Below are positions 1,164 to 21,957 of a DNA stretch of 21,957 nt, piece by piece. This DNA is from a virus (taxonomy: Duplodnaviria > Heunggongvirae > Uroviricota > Caudoviricetes), in the IMG/VR virus record IMGVR_UViG_2606217100_000005; one strand, 5' to 3'. Positions within the stretch are counted from its first letter, which is position 1. The number at the start of each line of letters is the position of its first letter. Both the position numbers and the translations under genes were made by a program. Below the pieces are notes generated by a model. That model made no database searches. It was not told the DNA's origin and saw nothing but the letters and a program-made list of their open reading frames with translations.

Positions 1164-1193
1164 GCCTGTGTCCATATTACGTGGGTAGGATCA

Positions 1194-1307
1194 CAGCACG
1201 ACATGCTTGTACTCGGCTGCATCAATGTTCTTACGTAGCTTGTCAGCTGCTTTCCACAGGATGACCTCTAACGGGTCTGTTTTGATTTCTTTAGGTTTTC
1301 TTGCCAT
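1194..1307 (-). pseudogene. 5' fragment (38 codons) of a type I restriction-modification methyltransferase (HsdM-like) gene, cut off by IS3
   Basis: Minus-strand ATG at 1307 gives MARKPKEIKTDPLEVILWKAADKLRKNIDAAEYKHVVL, then runs into the IS3 terminus. The LWKAADxLR...YKHVVLGL pattern is the typical N-terminus of HsdM-type N6-adenine methyltransferases (recalled family pattern, not searched). Confidence 0.5.
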
Positions 1308-2043
1308 TGGCGTAACTTCGTGAATTAGGATGGTAGCCCTATTTTGCCTTAAAGTTCCGCTTGTTACGAGCTTATACAGCGATTAATTATTATCTGATTT
1401 TAGTGTTTTCGTTCAGCTCAGCAAGTGCAATGACTCATGGGGTAAGTGCTTTGTAACAGGGTTGTTGATGTCAGTCGTTGGCCCTCAATGGAGTCACGGT
1501 CATAGGCATAATTGCTGTATAGCTGTTAATGTTTGTCTGGGTGAATTTCTACTATTCGGACTAACACCAAGTGAGTTCCATACTACATAACTGTGAGAAT
1601 TTTCTGTACCCTTCACTCTATCCTCTTCTTGCATATTTACAGGAAGATAAAGCAAAAGATACAAAACTTTGTAATCAAAAAACTGTCTTAATGTACTTAC
1701 ATCACGTTTAGTTATTAAATTTTTTGTCATGGTGAAAATTTTTACTTGGTCATTAAAATTCATCGGGTGTTAATATTCTAAACGAATAGGATGTCAAGCT
1801 AAAATGATGTGTCAAGTTGTTTGTAAAGTGAGAGGTTTATTTTTGGAAGAAATGCTTAAGAGAAGTATATATGATATTTGCCTGAATATAATTATTGATA
1901 TGCAAGGTTGGCAGAGGTTTTCTTTCTTTTCTAACCGAAGGGAAGAAAAGCAAGGGGAACTCGAAGAAGCAAGCGCAGCGGCTTCGCAGAGTTAGCCCTT
2001 GCTTCTCTTATAATTGGCATTATTCATTCAAGAACAATAGGAT

Positions 2044-2063
2044 CTTCGCTTGTACAAGCGAAG
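2044..2063. repeat. 20-bp perfect palindrome CTTCGCTTGTACAAGCGAAG in AT-rich non-coding tract
   Basis: Read directly: CTTCGCTTGT is the reverse complement of ACAAGCGAAG. Related GCGAAG/CTTCGC motifs occur nearby (about 1964-2007). No adjacent T-run, so not an obvious terminator. Confidence 0.8.
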
Positions 2064-2718
2064 CTATAATAAAAACAATCAATTAATTATTTTTAAAGTA
2101 TTAAACAAGAACCTATTGACATTCATAAAATACAAGTTATTTATAATGTATGCCATAAATAAAAAGTTTTATGTCATATGTATCCTGCACTATGTGCAGT
2201 TAATGTACCACTTGTCCCATAGATGGGAATATTGGAAAGGTTACTTTGTTTTGAAGTAGCCTTTCGTCCTTCAATATTAACGATTACTTATTGCTATTAC
2301 CAAGTCCAGTCGAATCGAAGAACATCTTTTATCTGAAACGACTCCTAATACCCGGTTAAAGCCACAATATCTCTCGCATACGTAGACCAAAGAAAAATTA
2401 TGATATTAAATATGTGATTTTTTTTAGTGTTAAGTTGAATAATTAAATACTGGAGAGTTTTCTGTGCACTACCAATTGCTGGTTCATCTGTTCTGCCGCT
2501 GATGTTTCTGACGAATCTCCCGGTGACACAGAACTGTCCCTCTCTACCAGCCTTTATTCGACTCAATGTCCGGCTGCTGATACGCAGTTATCCCTTCGTA
2601 TCAATGACTTACACTTAAACGTAATGCTTTGGTTGCTGGCGTATCTGACAGCTTCTTCGGCGTGAAGGTCGTTGTGTAAGTATACTTCTTGGTTTATTTA
2701 GGCTATATAAAACCATGA

Positions 2719-3615
2719 CTATGACTTGCTGTTTTCAGTAAGAGTCTTATCATCCAAAGAATTTATTCTAGAAATTCTTTTTAACTCATTAAGATAATCA
2801 ACCTCGTTTTCTAAGAACCAATGAAGAACTTTAGAATTGCCAAGTAATTTATTAATATATGACTGGATTATAACGAATTTCAACATATCTGAACCATACT
2901 CGGTTTGAAGCTTTTTCGTTTCTTCCGAAGTTGTTGCCATTTCTTGTTCCAGACGAAGTATGGTTTTTTTTATGTCCTTTTTATAGGGAGTGTTTTTCCC
3001 TTTATTTACTATCATCGATGCCGGTGTTGCATCCAAGATGCTCATTGCAAATTTTTTACTATAATTATCAAAATTAATCATTGTACCGACTGCTTCAATT
3101 TGGCGAATTGGCTTCATTTTCCTCAAAACGTCAAATGTAGCCTTAGGTATAGGTTTATCAGAAAGTTTCGCAATTACACTTGAATCTATGCCGTTCATCA
3201 CATTCGCTTTATCTTTTATGGCATCAACAGATATGCCCAAAGCAGCACTAAGTTTTTCAATTGATACTTTTGCCAGAGACTTAATTATCATTCTATGTTC
3301 TTCAACTACATTTATATGATTCACTTGTTTGTTAGGAGTGAAAGCATCATCTATGCTCGAAAGTATACATGGAGCTTTTTCTATACCTAAGTCTTTTAAA
3401 GCCTCAACCCTTAAATGGCCATCAAGTATCTTAGTGACATCTTTATCTTTGTCATAGAATACTATTATTGGTTCAATAATACCTAAGCTTTCGATAGAGG
3501 TAACTATTTGATGATATTTATGGCTTCGCTTTACGTTTTCTAATAATTCCTTAGATGGAATTAACTTATTAGTTTCCAGGTAAATAAAATTATCGCCAAA
3601 ACGTATCTGAATCAT
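2719..3615 (-). CDS. ParB-like N-terminal domain protein (paralog B), 298 aa
   Basis: ORF with ATGA stop/start overlap to the upstream gene. Motif ...IIEPIIVFYD...KILDGHLRVEALKDLG... resembles the ParB/Spo0J N-domain arginine-finger box (GERRxRA / DGQHR-like). AT-rich codon usage. Confidence 0.7.
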   Translation of the reverse strand: MIQIRFGDNFIYLETNKLIPSKELLENVKRSHKYHQIVTSIESLGIIEPIIVFYDKDKDVTKILDGHLRVEALKDLGIEKAPCILSSIDDAFTPNKQVNHINVVEEHRMIIKSLAKVSIEKLSAALGISVDAIKDKANVMNGIDSSVIAKLSDKPIPKATFDVLRKMKPIRQIEAVGTMINFDNYSKKFAMSILDATPASMIVNKGKNTPYKKDIKKTILRLEQEMATTSEETKKLQTEYGSDMLKFVIIQSYINKLLGNSKVLHWFLENEVDYLNELKRISRINSLDDKTLTENSKS

Positions 3616-4508
3616 TTTAATACCTCTTTGTTTACTGGGGTTAATATCTGAGATGGTAGTTCTGAAAGATTCTCTTGTTCAAGTATATGTTGAAAGCTTT
3701 TATTCATCATTATGATGTTAAAAATCTCATTTACTATTAGTAGGTTGGTTTTTATGAATTTTGAGTTGTTATAAACAGATTTATGTTCAGCGATACTATT
3801 TTCATAAAGCTCAATCAACTCCTCTGCAGTCATCCTTTTTGATGGTTTGTGATAATAAAATCCGGCTGCTTTTGCACCTTTATTCCCAACTGTTCTTTGA
3901 TTTAGAATGTGTTTTATCTTTATAATGTCCCGACTTTTTATTAATTTTTTATCATATGCTTCGGTAAGAATATCTTGTGCTTCCTCAGTTTCACATCTTG
4001 CAAATTGCACTGCGAGATACAGAGGCAAATTACCCCGTTCGACTGCTGAGAGAAGTTTATGCTCTCCCTTATCAAGTAGCATATTAATACTGCTCACCCA
4101 GTTCGATGAATATCCAGTAATCTCACTTATTTCGGAGTCTGAAAGTCCTCTGATTTTCATGTCTTTAATCACCTGTAATAACTCATTAGAACGTGGTCTT
4201 CTCCTTGCAATGTTTTCAACTAAACTCATAACGTAAGCATCTTCTTCTGATACATCTCTTATAATTGCTGGAATAATAGTTTCACCTAATGCAACGAGAG
4301 CCTCTATTCTCCCTTGACCACAAATTAAAGCATATTTGAAATCGCCTTCATCAATAGCTCTTACGCTTATAGGCTTGCTTAATCCTCTTTTTTTTATGCT
4401 TTCCTTTATTTCTTCATGCACTACCTTATTTCTTGTTCGTGGGTTAAGAAATTTTATTTTTGCAATCTCAATTTGAATTATTGGGAATTCATTTTTTTCA
4501 GGCAGCAT
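3612..4508 (-). CDS. ParB/Spo0J-like protein with central HTH (paralog A), 298 aa
   Basis: N-terminus IIQIEIAKIKFLNPRTRNK...SKPISVRAIDEGDFKYALICGQGRIEALVALGETIIPAIIRDVSEED follows the ParB N-domain pattern; followed by an HTH-like segment GLSDSEISEITGYSSNWV. Overlaps the recombinase gene by 11 nt. Confidence 0.7.
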   Translation of the reverse strand: MLPEKNEFPIIQIEIAKIKFLNPRTRNKVVHEEIKESIKKRGLSKPISVRAIDEGDFKYALICGQGRIEALVALGETIIPAIIRDVSEEDAYVMSLVENIARRRPRSNELLQVIKDMKIRGLSDSEISEITGYSSNWVSSINMLLDKGEHKLLSAVERGNLPLYLAVQFARCETEEAQDILTEAYDKKLIKSRDIIKIKHILNQRTVGNKGAKAAGFYYHKPSKRMTAEELIELYENSIAEHKSVYNNSKFIKTNLLIVNEIFNIIMMNKSFQHILEQENLSELPSQILTPVNKEVLK

Positions 4509-6054
4509 ATAGTTCCCTCACTTTCATGCGAGTAATAATTTGTAGAAGTTTATCAAGATTATCAAATCTATAGAGATCTAATCGAATGTTGTTTGTTTCC
4601 GTCATGCACATTTTATTATATTCGTTTTCAATCTTTGGTATGATATAAAAATCAAGAGGTGAAATATTTTGTGAATTCATTCGTATAACAATTGTTATGT
4701 CTGCTTTCTGTGAGTTATCAAACCGGACTTTCCATCTAAGTTTACCTGATTTCATATGTATGCATTTAGTAACAAGGACGGAAATTAAAAACTCATCATT
4801 GATGTAAAGCATTGGGGCATATTTATACTCGTCTATATGACAGTTACTTTTTAAAATTTCACCCTTAAAATCCTCAATTATCTCTGAGTAAAATGATCTT
4901 AGTGCTTCATTTATTTTGAGATAGCTGTAATCATGTTCTGGCTTATAACCAATCAAAGTATATGCTCTTAAAAGACCACCAAATCGGGTTCTATAAACAG
5001 AAGATGAAGGGCCTGTATCATCTTCATCAATGATAAAGCCTGATAGTTTTCCATTAGATTCTAATTTTTGTTTTAGTTTTTCTAATAGATCTTCATTAGT
5101 CAAATGAATGGATCGGAGCTGAATTATTTCTTGAGCTTTATTGTATTTTTTCTTTGAAATAATAGGTTTATATGCCTTGTCACATCTAACCCATTCATGT
5201 TTGGGGTTTTTTACAAGCCTACTTTTTAATTTAGATGAGGTTTTGTTATATATGTTGTTTCCAATATATTTTTCATTTGTCAAAATTTGATGTATTTTTG
5301 CACGAGTCCATAATGTTCCATTTTCTGCAGGTATGTTCTGTTCATTTAATCTCTCAGCAATAATGAATTCTGGGACGTTATTATCTATAAAGAGATCATA
5401 TATTCTATTTACAATTTTTATTTCATTTTTTGGTCCCGGAATTAATATTACCCTATCTGTTTGAATACTCTTTCTTTTGCGGAAACTCAATATTTCTTTA
5501 GCTATGCCATTTTCGTCTACTAAAAGACGTCTCAGCCCATAACCAGCCATACCGCCTTGATGATAACCAAGCTTTATTAAATTTACTTGCCCTATAAATA
5601 CCTTTTCAGATAGATTCCTGCTGTGATATGCAGCACTAGATCTTTTTATATTCAGTATAACAGAGGACTCTAAAGGGAAATCTTTAGTGGGTATAGGTTC
5701 GGAACAATATATAAGATCTACACCATTTCTCTCAAATAGAAAGGAATAATATGCCGCTTCATCACTATTTTGAAAACGACCAAAACGGCTCACATCATAA
5801 AATAATACAGCCTGTATATCTATTTTCTTTTGTTCTACATCGCTAAGTAACTGCTGCAAAGAATGCCTGCCTACGATACTGACTCCGCTCTTACCTGCAT
5901 CATCGTAGGTATAAGCGATTTCCATATTGTTCTTTTCAGCATAATCTTTGATATATTCGGACTGATTATGTAAAGAATATTGCTGATGGTCGGTAGACAT
6001 CCTCAAGTACTGCGCGACCCTAACTCTATGATTTTTTTCATTTTCGCTAGCCAT
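4498..6054 (-). CDS. Large serine recombinase (resolvase/integrase family), 518 aa
   Basis: N-terminal VAQYLRMSTDHQ motif (catalytic serine context of resolvase-family enzymes) followed by a long C-terminal extension typical of large serine recombinases; ATG start with GAGG upstream. Confidence 0.85.
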   Translation of the reverse strand: MASENEKNHRVRVAQYLRMSTDHQQYSLHNQSEYIKDYAEKNNMEIAYTYDDAGKSGVSIVGRHSLQQLLSDVEQKKIDIQAVLFYDVSRFGRFQNSDEAAYYSFLFERNGVDLIYCSEPIPTKDFPLESSVILNIKRSSAAYHSRNLSEKVFIGQVNLIKLGYHQGGMAGYGLRRLLVDENGIAKEILSFRKRKSIQTDRVILIPGPKNEIKIVNRIYDLFIDNNVPEFIIAERLNEQNIPAENGTLWTRAKIHQILTNEKYIGNNIYNKTSSKLKSRLVKNPKHEWVRCDKAYKPIISKKKYNKAQEIIQLRSIHLTNEDLLEKLKQKLESNGKLSGFIIDEDDTGPSSSVYRTRFGGLLRAYTLIGYKPEHDYSYLKINEALRSFYSEIIEDFKGEILKSNCHIDEYKYAPMLYINDEFLISVLVTKCIHMKSGKLRWKVRFDNSQKADITIVIRMNSQNISPLDFYIIPKIENEYNKMCMTETNNIRLDLYRFDNLDKLLQIITRMKVRELYAA

Positions 6055-6336
6055 GCACGAAACCTCATGGATGATTCAATACAATGTAGTGGATAAAATT
6101 GATCAAATTTTAACCGAATTCAACTGTTTTATCATTGATTAGAGCGAATTTGGTAGATCTTCGAGGTGTATGATAATCGAGAAGAGATGTGAATTATTTA
6201 GCTGATATGACCGACAGCTTTCGTTATGTGGACTCAATGTCCCCATTTGTAAATGGCTATGCTTAGTCCACATAGGTTAATGGTGTGATTATTAATTCTT
6301 TAACTAAATCAAGATAGTTAATCCATCATGGGAGAG

Positions 6337-7566
6337 TTATGCGGCAATAACTTTGCATTTTTGAGACGAAACATAGTCACTCCACCATTGCATGAGAACC
6401 ACCCGTTCAGTGAGATACTCTGCACGATTGTAGGCTGCAATTATTTCATCTTTCTTCGAGTGGGCAAGGGCGGCTTCTAAGACATCAGTCCTAAACTTGC
6501 CAGACTCCTCAGCAGCCGTTCTAGCAATGGATCGCATACCGTGAGCTACAAGCTCACCTCCGAAACCCATACGGATTATGGCCGCATTAGCTGTTTGTTC
6601 ATGCATGTGATTGAGTGGAGCTTTGATACTGGGGAACACCCACTCTCTATGCCCGCTGATGACTTTCATTAAATCCAAAACTCGCAAAGCTTCTTTGCTC
6701 AGTGGAACTTTGTGAGGCTTCTTCATTTTCATAAACTCCGCCGGGATGTTCCACATGCCAGTTTCAATATCAATATCTGACCATCTTGTGCGAACAGCTT
6801 CACCTGGGCGAACCCATGTGAGAAGTTGCCACTCAATCAGTAGCCTTGTTTCCAAACGGATAGAAGCATTGTTTAGAGCAACCAAGAAGCGAGGGAGTTC
6901 GGAAGGGGGTAATGCTGGCATATTCTGTTTTTTTGGCTTGCTGAACCGTTGCCCCAGGTTGTCTGCCGGGTTGAATTCTATGAGTTCTTCTGTTGCTGCA
7001 TAGCGGAAAATTTCATTCAGGCGGGATATGATGCGGCGAAGTGTTTCAAGGACACCTCGTTTTTCTATGGGTTCTAAATGCTGTTTAAGCATTTTAGGGC
7101 GAATCTCCTTAATTGGGGTATCACCCAATGTGGAAAAGATATTTCTCTCTAGGCTTCGCCAGATGTCGTTAGCATGATCTTGGGAGATGCCTGACGTTTT
7201 GACTTTCTCATCAAGCCACTTCTTGGCTACTGCTTGAAATGTATGTTCCGTGGCATCTTTCAGTGCATTGGCTTTTTGGTTGTTATGAACTTGGGGGTCT
7301 ATACCATTTGTAAGCAACGACAAGTATTCATCACGTAAAGCTCGTGCCTTCGCAAGTGTAAGGTGAGGATAGGTTCCTAAGCTCACCTTAGTTCGCTTTT
7401 TGGTCACAGGCACTGCATATCTGAAATACCAATTTTTCTTCCCTCCCTTCGCCAGGGGAGCGATTCGCAACAGCAAACCATCGCCGTCAAAAAGGTTAAC
7501 CTCTTTTTCGGCAGGTTTGGTGCTTTTGATTTCAGTGTCAGTGAGCTTCTTAGCGATTTTGGCCAT
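6337..7566 (-). CDS. Tyrosine integrase, P4/CP4-57 (IntA-like) family, 409 aa; ORF extends to 7647 but the ATG at 7566 is preferred
   Basis: N-terminus MAKIAKKLTDTEIKSTKP...LFDGDGLLLRIAP is the P4-type arm-binding domain; C-terminal HGMRSIARTAA...AYNRAEYL holds the catalytic tyrosine region. Lies next to the ssrA 3'-end repeat in the same orientation as int follows ssrA in E. coli K-12. Confidence 0.85.
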   Translation of the reverse strand: MAKIAKKLTDTEIKSTKPAEKEVNLFDGDGLLLRIAPLAKGGKKNWYFRYAVPVTKKRTKVSLGTYPHLTLAKARALRDEYLSLLTNGIDPQVHNNQKANALKDATEHTFQAVAKKWLDEKVKTSGISQDHANDIWRSLERNIFSTLGDTPIKEIRPKMLKQHLEPIEKRGVLETLRRIISRLNEIFRYAATEELIEFNPADNLGQRFSKPKKQNMPALPPSELPRFLVALNNASIRLETRLLIEWQLLTWVRPGEAVRTRWSDIDIETGMWNIPAEFMKMKKPHKVPLSKEALRVLDLMKVISGHREWVFPSIKAPLNHMHEQTANAAIIRMGFGGELVAHGMRSIARTAAEESGKFRTDVLEAALAHSKKDEIIAAYNRAEYLTERVVLMQWWSDYVSSQKCKVIAA

Positions 7567-7663
7567 GTTTGGGACCCTCGATTTTAGGACCCATCTTCGT
7601 GGGTCCCATTCAGGGTGCCATAACTCGTAGTTCTCAGCAATTCTCACTAGACTACAATAGACG

Positions 7664-7697
7664 TAAAAAAGCCCGCAGAGCTTGTGCTGTGCGGGCT
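7664..7697 (-). terminator. Intrinsic terminator (minus strand) between att repeat and integrase
   Basis: On the minus strand, stem AGCCCGCA...UGCGGGCU followed by UUUUUU (plus strand AAAAAAGCCCGCAGAGCTTGTGCTGTGCGGGCT). Confidence 0.6.
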
Positions 7698-7731
7698 TAG
7701 TAGACTTTACTGAACTTCAGTACATCAATAT

Positions 7732-7763
7732 TTGGTGGAGCTGGCGGGAGTTGAACCCGTGTC
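7732..7763 (-). repeat. 32-bp direct repeat of the ssrA 3' end (att core), 31/32 identical to 21556-21587
   Basis: TGGTGGAGCTGGCGGGAGTTGAACCCGtGTCC here versus TGGTGGAGCTGGCGGGAGTTGAACCCGcGTCC at the true ssrA 3' end; sequence diverges after this point. Confidence 0.9.
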
Positions 7764-7973
7764 CATAGTTATGTAATTCATTGAATTTAAATAGCCAAAT
7801 ATTGTTGATTTTACAAGCGGCTCTTTTGCGGAACTTTTTCTGTCCTGTTACTGTCTTACTATTTATTTTAAAATAGTTTCATTTGGAATTAATGGTTTGT
7901 GGTTGCAGTTTCGGAGATAGATAGCATTTTTTGCTAAAAAATATTTTTATAAAAAATGTGTGTAAAAATGATG

Positions 7974-8190: not shown

Positions 8191-9006
8191 ATGTTGCAAC
8201 CAGCAAAAAAAGCATCAGTTATTAGCGCGCGGCTAACTAAATACCTCAAAGATGGAGTGAGGATTGATGACTTTAGCTTTAGAAGGATGTTACGTGAGAT
8301 TGAAGCACTTAGAGATCCTGTCTCTGAGGACTATCTTTTAGCGTTGGTCTATGGTGCACATGGCCAAGTGAATGAGGCGATAGGCTTCTTTGAGCGTTCC
8401 TTGCAGGTATGCCATAATGAGGTTGTTGCAAAGAATTTTCTTGTTTTCTTGTCAGATTACGGTACGTTGAAGAAAAGCTTTGAAACAAGCATTAAGCTTG
8501 CTGAAAGCTTCATATCCCCGTTTATTTATCTTCAAGCTTATGAAAACTCCCTCTTTATGGGGAAGATGGCGTTGGCGGAGAAGTATTTCCAGTCATACTC
8601 TAAATTGTTCGGAGATAAGGAGCCTGAAAAAATGGACAACAATCTTGATGAAGTTGTTTCCCAGGTCGAATCCTTTAAGCAACGTGCCGATCTTTCTGGT
8701 TTAGAATATGAACTTATTTTCAATAATGTAGCCAATGTCATGGATTCTCAGAAGGTTCATCTTTCGGGAATGCGTTTTTATAATATTTCGGAAGAGAAAG
8801 TGAATGCGATTGTATTCATGACAAAGTCTTCTGATGCTGAACAAATCGCTGATATGAATATTGAGCTTGCTTTTTCAATGGCTGAGCACGATTGTTTAGT
8901 CGGTAAAGATTTTGCTGTTTGGTTTGAATGTAAAGACACACATATTGAGCAGAATGCTATCTCCGAATTAGGTCTGATTACCCGGAGGGTTGCACATGCC
9001 GGTTAA
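8191..9006 (+). CDS. Hypothetical protein, 271 aa (no family recognised)
   Basis: Long ORF with ATG start and AAGG upstream; predicted helical, AT-rich; its last 11 nt overlap the next ORF. Confidence 0.6.
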   Translation: MLQPAKKASVISARLTKYLKDGVRIDDFSFRRMLREIEALRDPVSEDYLLALVYGAHGQVNEAIGFFERSLQVCHNEVVAKNFLVFLSDYGTLKKSFETSIKLAESFISPFIYLQAYENSLFMGKMALAEKYFQSYSKLFGDKEPEKMDNNLDEVVSQVESFKQRADLSGLEYELIFNNVANVMDSQKVHLSGMRFYNISEEKVNAIVFMTKSSDAEQIADMNIELAFSMAEHDCLVGKDFAVWFECKDTHIEQNAISELGLITRRVAHAG

Positions 9007-9379
9007 TAGTCAAGATTTTCTCGGTTTTGCAAAAGACTGTCATCAACGTAATGACGAAATCGGCTATCGAAATGCTATAGCAAGATCCTACTATGGCGCT
9101 TACCATCATGTCTTGCCTTGTATGGTAAACGGGCCGAAAGACAGTCATCAGGGGCTAATCAATTATTTGCAGGGCGATGCTTCAAGAGGAAGTGAAGTAT
9201 ATGAAGCTAGATATCTAAAAGGGATTAGTTTTATCCTGAGTCAACTTAAAGCTCAGAGGATTGTTGCAGACTATCGACTTGATCAATCGGTCACTTCTAA
9301 ACAGTCTGAAGTTGCGATTCTAACAACTGAGAGGCTCTTTGCTAAGTGTACGGAAATGCTTAAATCGAGAGCCTCCTAA
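8996..9379 (+). CDS. Hypothetical protein, 127 aa from ATG 8996 (ORF opens at TTG 8990); contains an Rx6H motif (RSYYGAYH)
   Basis: GGAGGG lies 6 nt upstream of ATG 8996. The Rx4-6H pattern is the HEPN signature, but that assignment is speculative. Ends at an intrinsic terminator. Confidence 0.55.
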   Translation: MPVNSQDFLGFAKDCHQRNDEIGYRNAIARSYYGAYHHVLPCMVNGPKDSHQGLINYLQGDASRGSEVYEARYLKGISFILSQLKAQRIVADYRLDQSVTSKQSEVAILTTERLFAKCTEMLKSRAS

Positions 9380-9385
9380 TTGATA

Positions 9386-9411
9386 AAGCCACTTAAGTGG
9401 CTTTTTTTGTG
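9386..9411. terminator. Bidirectional intrinsic terminator (AAGCCACTTAAGTGGCTT + T-run)
   Basis: 18-bp palindrome followed by TTTTTGTG on the plus strand; the stop codon of the minus-strand int gene lies inside the stem. Confidence 0.7.
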
Positions 9412-10565
9412 ATATTGCTGGTCGTATTACCGTCATATTCCTTTAAATATGAACCATAATGACGAAATAACATTTCCGGCCCTTTATGCCCCATTTGAGC
9501 TGCAAGCCAAAACAGGTTTGCTCCCCGGCTGATATGGCGGGTGGCGAATGTATGCCTAGTTTGATATGGATTTCTGTAACGAATACCTGCTTTTCGCAAT
9601 GTTGGCACCCATGCTTTTTTCCTGATTGCATCAGCACTTGCCCAAGGCTTATTGGTCTTTGGATCTTCAAAGACAGTAGTATCCTTCATGAATGTAAATG
9701 GCTTCTGATTTATCAGCGCCAACATTGCCTCTTCTGTCAGTTCAACTTTCCGAGTACCTGCTTTTGTCTTTGTCCCTTTGATAACACCGACAACACTTGC
9801 GCTCTGGACATGGGCAGTTTTTCCAACAAAGTCGATATCACGCCATCGAAGGGCACATAATTCAGAACTACGCAGGCCTGTATGTATAGCGAACCGGAAC
9901 AGATTTTCCCATTGTTTGTTTCCGGCTGCTGCTAGTAATGCATCAACTTCTGCTGGTGATAGCGGATCAACTACGTAGCTGCTTTCTGCTTCTGACTTAT
10001 CACTTTGGTAGCGCGAAGCTGTTACTAACGATACGGGGTTAATTTGAAGTACCCCATCGGTCACGGCTTCATCAAGTGCTGACCGCAGGAAAGATAACTG
10101 GTTGCGAATTGTTTTTAAGGTCGTTTTCTGATTTTGAATCCACGCTTTCAGGGTTGCTGGTGTTAATTCACTTGCAGGGCAAATGTGAAGTGAGGCTAAC
10201 GCACTACGGCATTTTTTATAGCCACCAATCGTAGAGGGTGAAAGTTTTCTTGTTTCGCAGATTTCAAGATATTCGTCCAGGTACATCTTTACCGTTTTGC
10301 CTGCAGCAGCATTACCAAAAATTTTCAAACGAGCAGAACGGGGAAAATATTCTGCATAAATGAATGTTCCCCTTTCGATCTTATTATGGATTTCGCCGAG
10401 TGTACGCTCGGCGTATTTAATGTTCTTTGGTGTTACTTCCAGATTGGAAAGCGGCTCACGACATCTAACTCCTTTGTAGGTGAAAGTTATATTGATCGTT
10501 TCTCCCTGGCGGTGTTTCCTGATTGTTACGCCGCGCGGTAGTTTGAGCAGTTTTGTCTGGCCCAT
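9393..10565 (-). CDS. Tyrosine integrase, lambdoid type, 390 aa
   Basis: N-terminus MGQTKLLKLPRGVTIRKHRQGETINITFTYKGVRCRE (arm-binding domain of lambdoid integrases); C-terminal RHTFATRHISRGANLFWLAAQMGHKGPEMLFRHYGSY has the catalytic R/H/Y region. Confidence 0.85.
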   Translation of the reverse strand: MGQTKLLKLPRGVTIRKHRQGETINITFTYKGVRCREPLSNLEVTPKNIKYAERTLGEIHNKIERGTFIYAEYFPRSARLKIFGNAAAGKTVKMYLDEYLEICETRKLSPSTIGGYKKCRSALASLHICPASELTPATLKAWIQNQKTTLKTIRNQLSFLRSALDEAVTDGVLQINPVSLVTASRYQSDKSEAESSYVVDPLSPAEVDALLAAAGNKQWENLFRFAIHTGLRSSELCALRWRDIDFVGKTAHVQSASVVGVIKGTKTKAGTRKVELTEEAMLALINQKPFTFMKDTTVFEDPKTNKPWASADAIRKKAWVPTLRKAGIRYRNPYQTRHTFATRHISRGANLFWLAAQMGHKGPEMLFRHYGSYLKEYDGNTTSNITKKAT

Positions 10566-14724: not shown

Positions 14725-15399
14725 TTAGGCTTTGATTTTGTATCTTCTTGGTTTTCCTGAGAAAATCACTGTACCAATTATAGAGCAATTACCGTTGATC
14801 TTAATGTAAGGCTCAGGCCAGTTTGGGTTTAACGCTTTGAGATAACGCTGTGTCCCATCTTCTATTAACCTTTTGAAGGTGGTTTCACCTGTATCGTGCA
14901 TCAATGCAATAACGTCGTCACCGTGGCAGGCAGGTACTTCAGGATCGACAAAAATCATGTCTCCCGGGCGGTACTCATCAATCATTGAATCACCTATCAC
15001 CCGCAAGATATAAGTCATTTCCCCACAGGGTACAGGGCAGGGATACGTTTCTGCTGTGCTCAAATCAACCTCAGAATATCCAACTTCTTTCCATGCTCCG
15101 GCCTGTACCCATGATATGACAGGGACTAATGTGATTTGTTTATTAGTGATTGAAACATCAGGTTTTTTTGTGATGTTCGTTGTCTGGTGTTCTTGATCGA
15201 GCCATCCGACAGGTAGGTCGAAACATTTTTCGATGTGTCGTGCCATGCTGTCACCGATATTTTTAGTAGCACCATCTCCCATAAACCTGCTGGTCTGGGT
15301 TGGCTCGCGATCAATCATAGTGGCAAAGGAAGAATTCCCGCCAACACCATCTCTCAGTTTTCTGGCGTTAGACCGCCGGATGTCATGGATTGTTTTCAT
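14725..15399 (-). CDS. CI-like prophage repressor, N-terminal HTH plus C-terminal S24 (LexA-type) peptidase domain, 224 aa
   Basis: C-terminal VIGDSMIDEYRPGDMIFVDPE...FKRL has the Ser/Lys dyad context of S24 autoproteases; divergent from a Cro-like gene. Confidence 0.85.
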   Translation of the reverse strand: MKTIHDIRRSNARKLRDGVGGNSSFATMIDREPTQTSRFMGDGATKNIGDSMARHIEKCFDLPVGWLDQEHQTTNITKKPDVSITNKQITLVPVISWVQAGAWKEVGYSEVDLSTAETYPCPVPCGEMTYILRVIGDSMIDEYRPGDMIFVDPEVPACHGDDVIALMHDTGETTFKRLIEDGTQRYLKALNPNWPEPYIKINGNCSIIGTVIFSGKPRRYKIKA

Positions 15400-15721: not shown

Positions 15722-16285
15722 ATGAGGCTAACCGTGGGTAAGCATCACTGGAAAGTAGAAAAACAGCCTGAGTGGTACGTGAAAGCTGTCAGAAAAACTA
15801 TCGCGGCGTTGCCGGGGGGTTACGCTGAAGCTGCTGAGTGGCTGGATGTAACAGAGAACGCTTTATTCAACCGCCTTCGTGCAGATGGCGATCAGATTTT
15901 CCCGCTGGGATGGGCAATGATTTTACAGCGCGCGGCTGGCACTCACTACATTGCGGATGCTGTCGCACAGTCTGCTGGTGGGGTGTTTGTATCGCTTCCT
16001 GAAATTGAGGAAGTAGAGAACGCCGATATAAACCAGCGCCTGCTGGAAGTCATCGAACAGATCGGGAATTACTCAAAGCAGATTCGTTCGGCAATCGAAG
16101 ATGGGGTCGTGGAGCCACACGAGCAGACAGCAATTAATGATGAGTTGTATCTGTCAATTTCGAAGCTCCAGGAGCATGCAGCACTGGTCTACAAAATCTT
16201 TTGCGCTCCAGAAAAGAGTGACGCCCGCGAGTGTGCAGCTCCGGGCGTCGTGGCGTTTTGTGTCTGTGGAGAAACTAACGCATGA
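15722..16285 (+). CDS. CII-like phage regulatory protein (CP76-like family), 187 aa
   Basis: Sits in the cII slot after cro. The segment LFNRLRADGDQIFPLGWAMILQRAAGTHYIADAVAQSAGGVFVSLPE resembles the phage CII regulatory family from memory. Stop overlaps the next ATG (ATGA). Confidence 0.5.
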   Translation: MRLTVGKHHWKVEKQPEWYVKAVRKTIAALPGGYAEAAEWLDVTENALFNRLRADGDQIFPLGWAMILQRAAGTHYIADAVAQSAGGVFVSLPEIEEVENADINQRLLEVIEQIGNYSKQIRSAIEDGVVEPHEQTAINDELYLSISKLQEHAALVYKIFCAPEKSDARECAAPGVVAFCVCGETNA

Positions 16286-16430
16286 ACAGTTTAACGGCAA
16301 ATAACCGTTTGTCGCAACAGCTGGTGGTCAGTGTCGCTGCACACCTGTTGTTACGGCATGAATGCAGATTACCAAATCACCTGGCTGTAAGTAACCACAG
16401 AGAACTTTACCTGACTGTGGGGGGCGAGTT

Positions 16431-16610
16431 GTGCAGGAACTTAACCGCTGGTTTCGTGACGGAAGAGGGCTTTATGTCCATGTTATTCGTTGGGAGCCAG
16501 AAACACAGCGCGTTATCTATCTTCGCAAAGACTACCCGCATGAGTGCTTTAGTCCTTTGTGGAAATTCAGGCGTGATTTTGTTGAGTGTGAAGGACCACC
16601 AGCACATTGA
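16431..16610 (+). CDS. Possible small Cys/His-containing protein, 59 aa from GTG
   Basis: Frame-3 translation VQELNRWFRDGRGLYVHVIRWEPETQRVIYLRKDYPHECFSPLWKFRRDFVECEGPPAH looks protein-like, with a GGGGGG run upstream as a possible SD. It is hidden inside a longer, less convincing 236-aa frame-1 ORF. Confidence 0.3.
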   Translation: MQELNRWFRDGRGLYVHVIRWEPETQRVIYLRKDYPHECFSPLWKFRRDFVECEGPPAH

Positions 16611-16915
16611 TTCTGCCATTCCGGGACGTTACACTGTTCAGGCACCTTATAAAGCGGGTGCCGGGATTGGCGTCCTGGAAATGTTATCGGCGATATATGA
16701 CGCGCCAGCGTCTTTTTTATCGTCTGCGTCTGCGCACACCCAAATTATGGTGGGCTGGACGGGGGCACCGAAAGGTGCGCCGGTTTCCGATAACGCCGGT
16801 TACGCCAACCCCGTTCAGTTCACCACCAGCGAAATTGGCGTTTCCGGTGGTGAAGGTAATTCACTGTTATCGGAGGCTGCCATCATGGCTACTGTCCCAG
16901 CCCTCACTCGTCTGA

Positions 16916-17395
16916 ATGATGAAGACTTACATAAACTCAGTTATTGCACCGCCAGATATTCCGGCAGGCTTCGTGGCTGTTTTCAACAGTGATGAGGCAT
17001 CGTGGCATCTCGTTGAAGATCATCGGGGTAAAACGGTTTATGACGTAGCGTCAGGGGACGCGTTATTTATTTCTGAACTCGGTCCGTTACCGGAAAATGT
17101 TACCTGGTTATCGCCGGAAGGGGAGTTTCAGAAGTGGAACGGCACAGCCTGGGTGAAAGATGCAGAAGCAGAAAAACTGTTCCGGATCCGGGAGGCGGAA
17201 GAAACAAAAAACAGCCTGATGCAGGTAGCCAGTGAGCATATTGCGCCACTTCAGGATGCTGTAGATCTGGAAATCGCAACGGAGGAAGAAACCTCATTGC
17301 TGGAAGCCTGGAAAAAGTATCGGGTGTTGCTGAACCGTGTTGATACATCAACTGCACCGGATATTGAGTGGCCAGAAGAACCAGACACCGTGTAA
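16916..17395 (+). CDS. Tail fibre assembly protein (lambda Tfa family), N-terminally shortened, 159 aa
   Basis: From [52 protein letters not shown]... to the end it closely follows lambda Tfa as recalled. The first 9 residues are unrelated and no tail fibre gene precedes it. Confidence 0.8.
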
Positions 17396-17404
17396 GCAAA
17401 AAAG

Positions 17405-17444
17405 AAAAACCGCAGACACGACGTATGCATGACGTGCTGCGGTT
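17405..17444. terminator. Bidirectional hairpin terminator between the tfa-like and GIY-YIG genes
   Basis: AACCGCAG...CTGCGGTT stem with an internal palindromic segment; A/T runs on both sides (AAAAAAGAAAAA upstream). Confidence 0.55.
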
Positions 17445-17464
17445 TATGCTTATCACTTAAAGAC

Positions 17465-18283
<819 letters not shown>

Positions 18284-18644
18284 TCATTGCAAGGGCTCAC
18301 AACCAGTAGTGTTGAGAAAACCATCGGAGAAATGAGGCTAAGCCTTTGAATTTACATAGTACAAAAAAGATACTTTTCCTCATAATGTGAGCTAATTTTA
18401 TGTTTCGTTTGATGATTGGACCGGTCTCGAAAACCGTAGACACATAGTATGCGTTAATTTATGAACAAACTACTTGTCTGCTGTTTTTCTGTCATTAGTC
18501 GTATATAGAATGATTCTCTATGCCTAACAAAGCATCACCAGTGCTAGATTACGTTGTAGTCACTGTTTAAATATCCAGATAAAACATTTCCTTCTGGGTT
18601 GAATGAGTGATAAAGTTTCACCCATTAGACCCCTTGGAGGAATT

Positions 18645-20078
18645 ATGTCTGAATTTGAAGTGTTGGCACAGCATCTGCTGAAGGAAGCCGAGGCGGAAGA
18701 AAAGCTGCGACAGGAAAATGATAAAAAGCTTATCGAGAAAGTGCTGGAAATCTATGATCAGAAGTATGTGGCTGAATTACTGAGAAAAGTCGGAAAAAAT
18801 GAGTGGAGCCGTGAAACCATTAACCGCTGGATTAATGGCAAGTGTTTACCAAAATCGTTGACTTCAGTAGAAGAGTCTCTTCTGCGTAAGATGCTACCAG
18901 AACCACCTGCAAACCATCCGGAATATGCTTTCCGCTTCATTGACTTATTTGCTGGAATTGGAGGGATACGGAAAGGTTTTGAGGCCATTGGAGGCCAGTG
19001 TGTTTTTACCAGTGAATGGAATAAAGATGCTGTGCGTACATACAAGGCCAACTGGTTTAACGATGAACAGGTGCATAAATTCAATCTCGATATTCGGGAA
19101 GTCACGCTGAGTGATAAAACCGATGTATTGGAAACGGATGCTTATGCATATATTGATGAGCATGTGCCGGATCATGATGTGCTTCTTGCGGGGTTCCCGT
19201 GCCAGCCATTTAGCCTTGCTGGTGTTAGTAAGAAAAACTCACTTGGTCGTGCGCATGGTTTTGAATGTGAAGCACAAGGAACACTTTTTTTTGACGTGGC
19301 ACGTATTATACGAGCAAAAAAACCGGCAATTTTTGTGCTGGAAAATGTCAAAAATCTGAAGAGCCATGATAAGGGTAAAACTTTCAAAGTCATTATGGAG
19401 ACCCTTGACGAGCTGGGCTACGAAGTTGCCGATGCTGCAGAAATGGGAAAAAACGATCCAAAGATTATCGATGGGAAGCATTTTTTGCCTCAGCATCGTG
19501 AACGCATTGTTCTGGTCGGATTTAGACGAGATCTGAATATTCACAAGGGGTTTACCTTGCGTGATATCAGTCGTTTTTATCCGGAACACCGCCCATCATT
19601 TGGTGAATTGCTGGAGCCTGTAGTCGACAGTAAATATATACTTACGCCAAAACTATGGGAGTACCTTTATAACTACGCCAAAAAGCATGCAGCCAAGGGG
19701 AATGGTTTTGGCTTTGGGTTGGTCAATCCTGAGAATAAGGAAAGCATTGCACGCACACTTTCTGCCAGATATCACAAAGACGGATCAGAAATTCTTATTG
19801 ATCGTGGTTGGGATATGGCAACGGGAGAGGCTGACTTTATGAATGAGAGTAATCAGGCTCGTCGACCACGCAGGCTGACTCCCCGAGAGTGCGCACGCCT
19901 TATGGGATTTGAAAAACCTGGAGGGAAACCATTCCGTATTCCGGTTTCAGATACTCAGTCATATCGGCAGTTCGGTAACTCAGTTGTGGTGCCAGTATTT
20001 GAAGCTGTTGCCAGACTTCTGGAACCCTATATCCTCAAAGCTGTTTCTGCTGATGCTGGTAAGACTGGGCAGCCTTGA
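18645..20078 (+). CDS. DNA (cytosine-5) methyltransferase, Dcm/M.EcoRII family (CCWGG-type), 477 aa from ATG 18645 (ORF opens at 18603)
   Basis: Motif [19 protein letters not shown], motif [19 protein letters not shown], and a C-terminal [10 protein letters not shown]; extensive similarity to E. coli Dcm as recalled. GGAGG 5 nt upstream of ATG 18645. Confidence 0.9.
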
Positions 20079-20112
20079 GAACATCTCCCGGCCTTTTAAG
20101 CCGGGAGTCAGC

Positions 20113-21327
20113 CTATGATAGTTCAGCGTAAAGCTCTATCAGCTCAGTAATGAATGCTCCGAGCGTTATTAATTCTTCTCTAACTGCTTCTGGGTATTTT
20201 TTATGTAAAGTTGATGGTACAACGAGTCTGACACCCGCATCTTTCATTTCTCGGTATTGTGCTGAAGAAACACCTTCTTGCAGTGTAAATAAATGTACCT
20301 GATGGATTTTATCTGCTTCATTCAGTATCTGACGCCAGCGATCTTTGCAGGTGGTCTTTACTGCCAGCATACGTAAGTTTTCTACAGGAAATTCAACGTT
20401 ATGATATGCCTCTGCTGAAGGAAACAGGAAATCTGGTTTTTTATTACCTTCAGTAACTGCCTGAGTGGAGAAATGCCGTAGTCCGTGCTCGATAAAAAGC
20501 TTCTCTAGGTGAAGTTCAAGTGATTTGCCTGCCCTTGATTTACGTCGATTACTGACAGAGTTGGCTAATGCAATAAACTCATCTACAGAATCGAATCCTT
20601 TCTTAATAATATCAAGAACATGTAATTCCTCGACGAGTAGAAAAATATCATACTCGACACGCCGACGGTCAATCAGTTGCTCATCTGGATCCTTGGAGTT
20701 TTTAGCATAATGGCCAGCAGCATATTGAATAATTTCGTTTCCAGAAGGAAAACGCTTCTTCCAGTCTTCAGGAATAACATATTTATGATTTACTGGAGTT
20801 TGCTGAAGAGACAATCCGCCCAAAATTTGTCCGGCAGGGCCGGAAATTAGGGTTCCAGGTATGATTTCGCCAATAGCAGACTCGATGATATCCTCTTCAT
20901 CGGGATTGACGCAGACCCATATATCTACCTCGGAACAGTCAGTGTTCTGTTCGTTTAACCTGAAAGCAAGAATTGTGAGGGCTCCTGTATTTTCAGGGTT
21001 CTGTAATGGACTTCCTCTCCCCCAGCGCGTAATTCTTTTTTCGTTTCGGGTCTTACCAAAATAACGGTTGTTGTAATAAATTGCGCGTGCTTGGGTATCA
21101 GGGCAATCATGGGATGATACATGCGCAGTAAGGAAGACTGAAGGGTTCAGTTCGCGAGTATGATTGATAGATGGAAAAAGCTTTTCAACGATATTTGAGG
21201 GGATATAAAGTCCGACCTGATGGCCACCTGTTGCGCCTGTGTCGTTTGCAGAAAGGCGTTTGATGTAGATAAAGTAATTCCCGCTTGCGATATCAAGCAG
21301 CCAGTTATGAAAAACCGACATATACAT
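20113..21327 (-). CDS. EcoRII-like type IIE restriction endonuclease, 402-404 aa
   Basis: Convergent with the Dcm-family methyltransferase; length and N-terminus (M)SVFHNWLL...YIKRLSANDTGATGGHQVGLYIPS match EcoRII as recalled. Confidence 0.75.
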   Translation of the reverse strand: MYMSVFHNWLLDIASGNYFIYIKRLSANDTGATGGHQVGLYIPSNIVEKLFPSINHTRELNPSVFLTAHVSSHDCPDTQARAIYYNNRYFGKTRNEKRITRWGRGSPLQNPENTGALTILAFRLNEQNTDCSEVDIWVCVNPDEEDIIESAIGEIIPGTLISGPAGQILGGLSLQQTPVNHKYVIPEDWKKRFPSGNEIIQYAAGHYAKNSKDPDEQLIDRRRVEYDIFLLVEELHVLDIIKKGFDSVDEFIALANSVSNRRKSRAGKSLELHLEKLFIEHGLRHFSTQAVTEGNKKPDFLFPSAEAYHNVEFPVENLRMLAVKTTCKDRWRQILNEADKIHQVHLFTLQEGVSSAQYREMKDAGVRLVVPSTLHKKYPEAVREELITLGAFITELIELYAELS

Positions 21328-21402
21328 CCCTTTGTTAACATACAGTCAGGGTTAACATTTTTCCATAGTTATAGATAAGCGGCTAGGAACTTAAGGGAAA
21401 AA

Positions 21403-21430
21403 CAAAAAGCCCGCATAAGCGGGCTTTTGT
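21403..21430 (-). terminator. Intrinsic terminator downstream of ssrA (minus strand), also insulating the restriction gene
   Basis: Plus strand AAAAAGCCCGCATAAGCGGGCTTTTGTG; on the minus strand stem AGCCCGC/GCGGGCU followed by UUUUUGUU. Same stem family as the terminator at 7664-7697. Confidence 0.65.
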
Positions 21431-21555
21431 GTCACTCGAGAGCCGCGGCTCCTTTGCGTATCCTTTTTTGTCTCCTCACCGTCTGGTCGGTGTCCTGCTG
21501 AGACTGCTAACTTCCTGTTTTTGTTGGTGTTGTCCTTACACCGTCCAATCATGAT

Positions 21556-21918
21556 TGGTGGAGCTGGCGGGAGTTGAACCCGCGTCCGAAATTCCTACAT
21601 CCTCGGTACTACATGCTTAGTCAGTCTTTACATTCGCTTGCCAGCTGCGGACGGACACGCCACTAACAAACTAGCCTGATTAAGTTTTAACGCTTCAACC
21701 CCAGGCAGGGCTTCCACGCGATCTCTTTTGGGTTTGACCTCTCTTGATCCCCGTCCTAAGAGCGGAGGCTAGGGAGAGAGGGCTCTAAGCAGGTTATTAA
21801 GCTGCTAAAGCGTAGTTTTCGTCGTTTGCGACTATTTTTTGCGGCTTTTTACGAGGCCAACCGCCCCTCGGCATGCACCTTGGGTTTCGCAAATCCCGTC
21901 GAATCCAGAATCAGCCCC
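21556..21918 (-). ncRNA. ssrA: tmRNA (SsrA), complete, 363 nt
   Basis: Reverse complement begins GGGGCTGATTCTGGATTCGACGGGATTTGCGAAACCC, contains the tag-peptide reading frame GCAAACGACGAAAACTACGCTTTAGCAGCTTAA (ANDENYALAA), and ends ...GGTTCAACTCCCGCCAGCTCCACCA; matches E. coli ssrA from memory. Confidence 0.97.
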
Positions 21919-21957
21919 AATGTGTAAAGGTAAGTATACCAGATTTATGAGCGCCAT

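Follow-up and report, generated by a model that had tools for sequence, protein, structure and literature searches.

Described EcoRII-type systems

The EcoRII restriction-modification system is carried by conjugative enterobacterial plasmids, where it is flanked by plasmid genes, and pairs a two-domain endonuclease (PDB 1NA6, 3HQF and 3HQG) with a two-domain methylase, M.EcoRII. Its type IIE mechanism (PMC2770665) and autoregulation of M.EcoRII (PMC12707154) have been described. On plasmids, EcoRII causes post-segregational killing (PMC2993543); this host killing is suppressed by Dcm (PMC2993543, PMC3424554), a suppression referred to as 'molecular vaccination' (PMC2993543). Dcm is encoded in E. 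coli K-12 by the chromosomal dcm-vsr locus, in which vsr overlaps dcm. Burkholderia phage KL3 bears a module of EcoRII-C, Vsr and EcoRII-methylase, and its enzyme was described as an EcoRII-C domain protein (PMC3091744). The type IIP enzymes Ecl18kI, PspGI and SsoII (CCNGG or CCWGG) have the same catalytic-domain fold and K-D-R recognition motif (PMC2770665).

The window analysed here, a stretch of 21,957 nucleotides taken at its full length, contains an intact EcoRII-family type IIE system, which is very probably accessory cargo of an ssrA-integrating temperate phage that has decayed in this genome to a 13.8-kb remnant. The window pair shares with plasmid EcoRII the two-domain architecture of both enzymes, the convergent gene order, the 34-bp gap and short conserved upstream regions. 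Protein identities are 86-87% for the endonuclease and 92% for the methylase, with all catalytic and recognition residues identical. However, DNA identity is only ~80%, and the window pair therefore represents a distinct allele lineage. The two also differ in location: the window pair resides on chromosomal ssrA-integrating prophages rather than on conjugative plasmids, and it lies between PD-T4-3 and a phage attachment site.

The methylase belongs to the same subfamily as K-12 Dcm (NCBIfam PRK10458; 69% identity) and presumably modifies the same inner cytosine of CCWGG. In contrast to dcm, it has no overlapping vsr and is paired with a restriction gene; moreover, dcm-vsr is present in ~99% of genomes, whereas the prophage-borne window pair occurs in about 5%. 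The KL3 module resembles the window pair as a CCWGG-type restriction-modification system on a temperate phage, but it has its own vsr and co-oriented genes, while the window pair is convergent and has none. The alignment of the KL3 enzyme is confined to query residues 171-397, which belong to the EcoRII-C part (39% identity); given this alignment and the published description, it appears to have no N-terminal effector domain. Ecl18kI, PspGI and SsoII show weak similarity to the C-terminal domain (E about 1e-4), lack an effector domain and are distant relatives only, whereas the window protein is EcoRII proper.

Methyltransferase and restriction genes

The coordinates of all features discussed are collected in Table 1. 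A preliminary description of the window had proposed a 477-aa Dcm-family C5-methyltransferase facing a convergent EcoRII-like gene of 402-404 aa, and both open reading frames are present where they had been placed. The methyltransferase has an N-terminal regulatory domain (Pfam DNA_meth_N PF18284, E = 7e-27) followed by a catalytic domain (DNA_methylase PF00145, E = 4.7e-78), and it scores 927 bits against the subfamily model NF007772, above the cut-off of 710. C5-methyltransferase motifs I (FAGIGG), IV (PCQ), VI (ENV) and X (GNS) are identical in alignments with Dcm and M.EcoRII, in which QFGNSV is also intact. A longer reading frame of 491 aa begins at 18603; the 477-aa start agrees residue for residue with plasmid M.EcoRII as well as with the RefSeq annotation, and a GGAGG Shine-Dalgarno sequence lies 7 nt 5' of its ATG. 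The possibility that this gene is a diverged chromosomal dcm was rejected in view of its identities (92% to M.EcoRII vs 69% to Dcm), its restriction partner and its position inside the att repeats. The identity to M.EcoRII predicts the inner cytosine of CCWGG as its target.

For the restriction gene, the second ATG at 21321 (402 aa) is the more likely start: it is annotated in RefSeq, aligns with an in-frame ATG of plasmid ecoRIIR and has the better-spaced AAGGGA. The N-terminal part of the protein is a B3-like effector domain covering nearly the full EcoRII-N profile (PF09217, E = 3.9e-61, residues 18-165) and also aligned to PDB 3HQF, while the C-terminal part is a PD-(D/E)XK domain (EcoRII-C PF09019, E = 2.4e-71, residues 229-393). 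The whole protein matches the PADLOC model REase_II (2e-234) and aligns end to end and without gaps to EcoRII in PDB 1NA6 (E = 3e-243, 86% identity); identity to plasmid R.EcoRII is 87%.

The endonuclease was compared with 1NA6 along its sequence, with the functional residues of EcoRII taken from PMC2770665. The two proteins differ by 56 substitutions, none of which falls on a residue listed in that paper as catalytic or DNA-contacting. The unchanged residues include the catalytic E271, D299, K324 and E337; K328, D329, R330, N260 and R262, responsible for CC:GG readout and base flipping; and the effector contacts to CCWGG (N28, H36, Q37, Y41, R81, Y85, K92, T93, R94, E96, R98, T100 and R101). 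At position 88 the window protein has the wild-type Arg, the crystallized protein being an R88A mutant. Inactivating changes in this gene, which the preliminary description had named as grounds for giving up its reading, were thus absent in comparison with 1NA6 and the published residue lists. Conservation of these residues argues for CCWGG specificity of the endonuclease and, together with the 86% identity, for a requirement for a second (effector) CCWGG site.

Table 1. Features of the EcoRII-type pair and its surroundings in the window
Feature	Position	Strand	Basis and remarks
attL, displaced copy of the ssrA 3' end	7732..7764	.	Direct repeat D1; far end of the remnant
Hairpin AAACCGCAG...CTGCGGTTT	17403..17450	.	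Between the tail-fibre assembly gene and PD-T4-3
PD-T4-3 / CMoRE, GIY-YIG type IV nuclease	17465..18238	-	PADLOC and PDB matches; adjoins the restriction-modification pair
Methylase upstream region	18562..18644	+	Homology to plasmid EcoRII; travels with the restriction-modification unit; includes GGAGG ribosome-binding site
M.EcoRII-type DNA (cytosine-5) methyltransferase, 477 aa	18645..20078	+	Pfam, NCBIfam, identity to M.EcoRII
G+C-rich 8-bp hairpin CTCCCGGC / GCCGGGAG, 7-nt loop	20085..20107	.	Read from sequence; within the 34-bp gap
Type IIE restriction endonuclease of the EcoRII type, 404 aa (start at 21327) or 402 aa (start at 21321)	20113..21327	-	
Restriction gene upstream region, two ATGTTAAC copies 16 nt apart	21328..21400	-	Read from sequence
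Strong intrinsic terminator, 10-bp stem and T-run	21405..21428	-	Terminator scan; downstream of ssrA
attR core, 3' end of ssrA	21555..21587	.	33-nt direct repeat, 97% identical to 7732-7764
ssrA (tmRNA)	21556-21918	-	Separated by 228 bp from the start of the restriction gene

Gene order and regulatory signals

The stop codons of the two convergent genes are 34 bp apart, exactly as in the plasmid EcoRII locus (L004). The hairpin within this gap is possibly a bidirectional transcription stop, and it fails the T-run rule of the terminator scan. As had been noted before, no vsr-like gene follows the methyltransferase: none overlaps its 3' end, the next gene is the convergent endonuclease, and no open reading frame that could be a hidden vsr or controller gene fits the gap or either upstream region. 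A scan with Rfam found zero RNA families inside the coordinates of the pair.

Homology to plasmid EcoRII (~80% DNA identity) begins 83 nt before the methylase ATG and is dense thereafter; by analogy with M.EcoRII, the region between presumably holds an autoregulated ecoRIIM promoter/operator. On the opposite side, this homology reaches ~70 nt upstream of the restriction start codon, and the region with the two repeat copies is presumably the restriction gene promoter. A simple sigma-70 promoter scan found no strong site 5' of either gene. The intrinsic terminator downstream of ssrA separates the co-oriented restriction gene from this highly transcribed neighbour.

CCWGG sites occur 27 times in the window as compared to about 26 expected, and avoidance of the site by the prophage was therefore rejected. 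Such a count fits a fully methylated host.

Prophage remnant at ssrA

The remnant spans ~13.8 kb between two copies of the 33-nt ssrA 3' end, in agreement with the prophage-remnant setting proposed previously. Genes between the repeats code for an integrase and a cI-like repressor, others are of the cII/Ash type, and a single gene is for tail-fibre assembly; head, tail-shaft and lysis genes are absent from these 13.8 kb. The EcoRII-type pair occupies the ssrA-proximal (attR) end. At the other end, attL doubles as the attachment point for a second island on its left, and next to it lies a gene for a tyrosine integrase (6337-7647, -).

The 140 bp adjoining ssrA, which include the terminator, match the native ssrA-ypjA spacer, as present in strains without the prophage, at ~90% identity. 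The same segment is 99% identical, up to about 21508, to the circular phage of strain CT01. A chromosomal origin was rejected on account of this match, the segment being a copy of the ssrA 3' flank that belongs to the phage itself.

Distribution among genomes, plasmids and phages

Across 5426 complete E. coli genomes, the methylase-restriction pair was found beside ssrA in 261 (about 5%) at 98-100% DNA identity; the genomes that have this methylase allele also hold the paired restriction gene. EcoRII-type methylase genes in general occur in 541 genomes, or about one in ten, and about 1940 plasmids bear an EcoRII-type system at ~80% DNA identity. Deposited coliphage genomes gave no DNA match of any length. 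At the protein level, the only matches among deposited phages were two unannotated faecal fragments (full-length, 38-40% identity) and the C-domain-only enzyme of phage KL3. There is nothing unusual about the pair as such, for which annotations already exist in hundreds of E. coli genomes, and a search of the available literature library returned nothing relevant on an EcoRII system at ssrA prophages.

The frequency of the EcoRII-type barrier on plasmids and in E. coli genomes also suits an explanation in which the pair mainly serves the phage. The methylase would fully modify CCWGG in phage DNA as it replicates and so shield progeny from the EcoRII-type systems common on enterobacterial plasmids, and the endonuclease would provide superinfection exclusion or degrade host DNA, either in the lysogen or in the lytic phase. 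The same role was proposed for the KL3 module (PMC3091744), and the pair is present in intact-looking phages and not in remnants alone. However, the window phage is a remnant that has no structural genes and yet keeps both genes intact, so that gene upkeep here cannot work through virion production. We regard this explanation, which is compatible with a defensive role, as conceivable but doubtful.

Alternatively, the genes may be intact but silent passengers, carried along with PD-T4-3 or the att-proximal region and made neutral by Dcm, which would cancel both cost and benefit. The promoter scan and the redundancy with Dcm would agree with this, as would occasional disruption by insertion sequences (H68). 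On the other hand, both genes are full length and 99-100% identical in hundreds of genomes, several phage backbones and several lineages. Retention of every functional residue at 86% overall identity to EcoRII further indicates longer-term purifying selection, which makes silent carriage quite unlikely.

The neighbouring PD-T4-3/CMoRE gene and the shared module

The gene adjoining the pair on its left encodes PD-T4-3/CMoRE, an identity overlooked in the preliminary description. Its product matches the PADLOC PD-T4-3 model (PDLC04031) over 1-256 of 256 positions (E = 2.5e-140) and the solved CMoRE protein in PDB 9U75 (E = 5e-172). PD-T4-3/CMoRE specifically cuts 5hmC- and glucosyl-5hmC-DNA (PMC12923530). 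It is a neighbour outside the EcoRII system proper, although the two adjoin and travel together in 244 of the 261 genomes with the pair beside ssrA.

In all contexts examined, the shared module has its left edge at the hairpin on the far side of PD-T4-3. For instance, module homology starts at 17407 in two further loci (L003 and L005), and the PD-T4-3 units of 613 genomes start at this hairpin. The same 4.1-kb module was found in three different phage backbones, namely a lambda-like prophage, a 43.7-kb circular myovirus-type genome, where it lies beside the integrase, and another remnant. This mobility between backbones and the position next to attR bear out the earlier view of the pair as acquired cargo in a prophage accessory region. 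The module is not always kept intact, as an IS3 element is inserted in it in at least one carrier (H68).

We tentatively consider that the EcoRII pair and PD-T4-3/CMoRE are selected together as a mobile cytosine cassette of two layers, with 5-methylcytosine as the self mark, although this is less than likely. EcoRII would cut unmodified CCWGG and CMoRE would cut DNA with cytosine replaced by 5hmC or glucosyl-5hmC; 5-methylcytosine would be the sole mark tolerated by both enzymes and could thus identify self. Such a unit may spread among ssrA-integrating phages through att-by-att recombination or tandem island capture. In the circular CT01 phage a diverged att-like repeat of about 140 bp lies on each side of the cassette. 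The left one occurs in only ~40 genomes and was rejected as a general feature, for which reason tandem capture is retained as a hypothetical route.

Chromosomal Dcm and the proposed function

The dcm-vsr locus is present in 5359 of the 5426 E. coli genomes (98.8%), and in all 60 carriers listed the methylase gene also matches a further, dcm-like place in the chromosome. These genotypes support the earlier proposal that the methylase is redundant in dcm-positive hosts, with which the pair coexists.

Post-segregational killing, known from plasmid EcoRII, would offer another reason for the presence of the pair, which could act as a selfish addiction module stabilizing the prophage or its remnant; the window remnant has retained the pair while shedding about 30 kb of phage genes. 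Nevertheless, Dcm suppresses EcoRII-mediated killing, and since dcm is near-universal and a second dcm-like locus is present in the inspected carriers, the threat is disarmed in the actual hosts. We therefore consider addiction very unlikely; with its killing disarmed by Dcm, an EcoRII system is tolerated.

Carriage as accessory phage cargo with a defensive role can be outlined as follows, by homology to EcoRII. If expressed, the methyltransferase would add a 5-methyl group to the inner cytosine of CCWGG on both strands, and its N-terminal domain would repress its own promoter. The endonuclease would be a dimer in which the N-terminal B3-like effector domains inhibit the C-terminal PD-(D/E)XK catalytic core. 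Cleavage of unmethylated CCWGG would depend on the binding of additional unmethylated CCWGG sites to these domains; DNA with sparse sites would escape, and site-rich incoming DNA would be cut. On the host side, in essentially every E. coli, chromosomal Dcm would already methylate CCWGG and Vsr would repair the resulting T:G mismatches. As a result, the pair could enter a new lysogen without self-killing and would need no vsr of its own, and the prophage would not be retained through post-segregational killing.

The remaining effect of the pair would be restriction of DNA un- or under-methylated at CCWGG, namely rapidly replicating phage DNA and DNA that comes from dcm-negative donors, while PD-T4-3/CMoRE would cover phages that evade restriction via 5hmC or glucosyl-5hmC. 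Where hosts and coliphage progeny are nearly all Dcm-methylated, it is doubtful how much a CCWGG system contributes to defence.

Implications

The scientific weight of the EcoRII-type pair is modest. Among the cargo of temperate coliphages at ssrA, a complete two-domain EcoRII system is common, being found in about 5% of complete E. coli genomes, and its coexistence with chromosomal Dcm illustrates "molecular vaccination" in nature. A recipient whose pair is active would restrict DNA prepared in dcm-negative laboratory hosts, as well as phages propagated on hosts without dcm, B strains for example. The pairing with PD-T4-3/CMoRE also bears on host-range prediction for therapeutic T-even-like phages.

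Sequence identity and organization of the gene pair

The two genes next to ssrA classify as an EcoRII family member by every sequence-level criterion tested. The restriction protein (R) contains both EcoRII-specific Pfam domains, EcoRII-N (3.9e-61) and EcoRII-C (2.4e-71). Its alignment to the EcoRII crystal-structure sequence 1NA6 is gap-free (E = 3e-243, 86% identity over 403 residues), and its identity to R.EcoRII of an IncFII plasmid is 87%. Functional residues were taken from the EcoRII-DNA co-crystal study (PMC2770665) and comprise the catalytic residues (E271, D299, K324, E337), those reading out CC:GG (K328, D329, R330, N260), the phosphate clamp at the flipped central pair (R262) and the effector-domain contacts (N28, H36, Q37, Y41, R81, Y85, K92, T93, R94, E96, R98, T100, R101). 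The 56 substitutions between R and 1NA6 all lie outside the listed residues. Position 88 of R is the wild-type Arg, whereas the crystallised protein is an R88A mutant. The methyltransferase (M) has the Pfam domains DNA_meth_N and DNA_methylase, scores 927 bits on NCBIfam PRK10458 (cut-off 710) and retains the catalytic motifs FAGIGG, PCQ, ENV and GNS; its identity is 92% to plasmid M.EcoRII and 69% to K-12 Dcm. The domains, the identities of both proteins and the conserved residues support the EcoRII-like type IIE identity proposed in the preliminary description.

At the DNA level, homology to plasmid EcoRII spans 18562-21389 and covers M, R and ~70-80 nt 5' of each. With an identity of only ~80%, the pair belongs to a distinct EcoRII allele lineage and is not a recent plasmid-to-chromosome transfer.

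Both genes are intact, and the two convergent open reading frames were found exactly where they had been described. The 477-aa start of M lies 7 nt 3' of a GGAGG ribosome-binding site, pairs with M.EcoRII from residue 1 and equals the RefSeq annotation in identical loci; an alternative 491-aa reading opens at 18603. The second ATG of R is the RefSeq-annotated start, lines up with an in-frame ATG of plasmid ecoRIIR and is better spaced from an AAGGGA stretch. The stop codons of M and R are 34 bp apart. Inspection of this gap, which holds a G+C-rich hairpin, revealed no ORF and thus no vsr, as had been noted before. Just 5' of the R start (21340-21375, upstream on the minus strand) are two copies of ATGTTAAC, 16 nt apart. 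These repeats are not kept in the upstream region of plasmid EcoRII when compared with that of R, and could be an operator or a chance occurrence.

Coordinates of features in the window
Feature	Position	Strand	Details
IS3 copy, transposase ORF	297-1163		window left end
Two ParB/RepB-like genes	2719-4508		second island
Large serine recombinase	4498-6054		second island
Tyrosine integrase	6337-7647		second island
attL	7732-7764		displaced ssrA 3' end
Two ORFs	8191-9379	+	271 and 129 aa
Tyrosine integrase	9393-10565		prophage
cI-like S24 repressor	14725-15399		prophage
Ash-family ORF	16282-16992		prophage
isrK	16642-16718	+	Rfam
C4 antisense RNA	16743-16830	+	Rfam
Tail-fibre assembly gene	16916-17395		prophage, single
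IS009	17154-17352	+	Rfam
Left CT01-type repeat, counterpart	17403-17450		L003 (NZ_CP081794.1) 27957-28100
PD-T4-3/CMoRE gene	17465-18238	-	type IV nuclease
Methyltransferase gene M	18645-20078	+	477 aa
G+C-rich hairpin	20085-20107		8-bp, in M-R gap
Restriction gene R	20113-21327	-	404 aa (first ATG) or 402 aa (second ATG, 21321)
Intrinsic terminator	21405-21428		strong
Right CT01-type repeat, counterpart	21474-21587		L003 (NZ_CP081794.1) 32106-32260
attR	21555-21587		ssrA 3' end
ssrA (tmRNA gene)	21556-21918	-

Prophage remnant and the ssrA junction

The region from 21555 to the window end at 21957 is 100% identical to K-12, and the 33-nt ssrA 3' end recurs as attL. Besides the integrase, the repressor and the tail-fibre assembly gene, the att repeats enclose yfdR/Q/P-type genes, cII-like and Ash-family genes, the isrK and C4 RNAs, the PD-T4-3/CMoRE gene and the restriction-modification pair. 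A survey of this gene content found no head, tail-shaft or lysis genes; the term prophage remnant was therefore appropriate, as was the placement of the pair at its ssrA-proximal (attR) end. The isrK, C4 and IS009 matches, all above the Rfam gathering score, fall where the reading frames of the Ash-family and tail-fibre assembly genes overlap, which is probably the joint of the deletion in which the structural genes were lost.

R is separated from ssrA by 228 bp, in which a terminator scan located a strong intrinsic terminator. It belongs to a 140-bp segment with ~90% identity to the native ssrA-ypjA spacer of strains lacking an integrated element and 99% identity, up to ~21508, to the circular phage of strain CT01. 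These two matches indicate that the phage supplies the 3' end of ssrA and the terminator from a copy of its own. Elements integrating at tRNA sites usually carry their own copy of the 3' end of the target gene. R lies directly downstream of the very highly transcribed ssrA, in the same orientation, and only the terminator and ~75 nt keep them apart; read-through from ssrA could add to R expression.

Between attL and the prophage integrase, the two ORFs at 8191-9379 have no Pfam match. Their place is taken in strain WL164 by two hypothetical proteins and a STAS-like protein, and in phage CT01 by a DinI-like gene; this position is a second variable cargo slot. A second, AT-rich island (30-35% GC) to the left of 7732 uses the displaced ssrA fragment (window 1-7764), in a tandem array at ssrA.

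Distribution and mobility

Of 5426 complete E. coli genomes, 261 contain the M-R-ssrA stretch at 98-100% identity, and 244 of these carry PD-T4-3 on the same stretch (613 genomes have the PD-T4-3 unit in all). The 4.1-kb module (17407 to ~21508) is common, at 98-99.6% identity, to three different phage backbones: a lambda-like siphovirus prophage of strain 1EC213 whose tail operon is complete, a 43.7-kb circular record from strain CT01 that represents the whole genome of a myovirus-type temperate phage, and another remnant in strain WL164. Together with its attR-proximal position, this supports the earlier view of the pair as acquired cargo in a prophage accessory region. In CT01, the module has an acyltransferase gene on one side and the DinI-integrase end on the other, and the integrase is just 22% identical to that of the window prophage. 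PD-T4-3 alone occupies the same place, after tail-fibre or pin genes, in many further prophages, among them those of O157:H7, so PD-T4-3 and the restriction-modification pair are separable cargo accumulating in the att-proximal accessory region.

Diverged att-like direct repeats of ~140 bp flank the CT01 module on both sides; each combines sequence resembling the region downstream of ssrA with a degenerate ssrA 3' end and a hairpin. Such a pattern would be expected if tandem integration followed by joint excision had picked up a small att-site island, which is possible; the left repeat occurs in only ~40 genomes.

An EcoRII-type methylase gene is present in 541 of the 5426 genomes, about half with the prophage and half with the plasmid allele, and plasmid-type EcoRII (~80% DNA identity) was found in ~1940 plasmids. 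A search of 50,697 deposited phage genomes gave no DNA match to any coliphage; protein-level matches were restricted to two faecal-metagenome fragments and a C-domain-only enzyme of Burkholderia phage KL3. RefSeq already gives the pair a generic annotation in hundreds of genomes, and the literature searched yielded no paper describing the ssrA-prophage EcoRII allele. What is mildly novel is only how often the pair travels in temperate phages although Dcm is universal, how consistently it is accompanied by PD-T4-3/CMoRE, and that att-like sequences flank it in one circular phage.

Coexistence with Dcm and the neighboring nuclease

The dcm-vsr locus is present in 5359 of the 5426 genomes (98.8%). 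All 60 listed chromosomes with the exact M allele contain a second place matching the M gene at low stringency, which we read as dcm because K-12 dcm has 69.6% DNA identity to the window gene; these carriers are therefore dcm-positive. The redundancy of the methyltransferase in a dcm-positive host, as previously suggested, holds at the genotype level. No CCWGG depletion was detected in the window (27 observed, ~26 expected), as expected for methylated DNA.

Judged from its sequence, the methylase would mark the inner C of CCWGG. The dimeric endonuclease would be auto-inhibited through its own N-terminal domains and, as described in PMC2770665, would cut unmethylated CCWGG only with further sites filling these domains; practical targets would be DNAs un- or under-methylated at CCWGG. 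We infer the expression, specificity, two-site dependence and benefit of the pair. Alternatively, the genes may serve the phage through self-methylation and exclusion, or may be silent passengers. The weakest alternative is an addiction module, since Dcm suppresses host killing by EcoRII (PMC2993543; PMC3424554); in natural hosts the pair is unlikely to be effective as one. M.EcoRII represses its own gene once CCWGG sites are methylated (PMC12707154). In a dcm-positive host the defence pair would be able to establish without a lag problem, and would need no vsr of its own because the host supplies it.

The preliminary description did not identify the neighboring gene as PD-T4-3/CMoRE. It matches the PADLOC model PD-T4-3 over its full length (E = 2.5e-140), and its product matches the solved CMoRE proteins 9U75 and 9U7U (E = 5e-172). 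CMoRE is a type IV GIY-YIG nuclease that degrades DNA containing 5hmC or glucosyl-5hmC and shows neither binding nor cleavage of unmodified or 5mC-DNA (PMC12923530), which makes it compatible with CCWGG methylation; a native-host study found protection against T-even-like phages. CMoRE would thus cover phages that escape EcoRII by cytosine replacement, and the two systems may be complementary.
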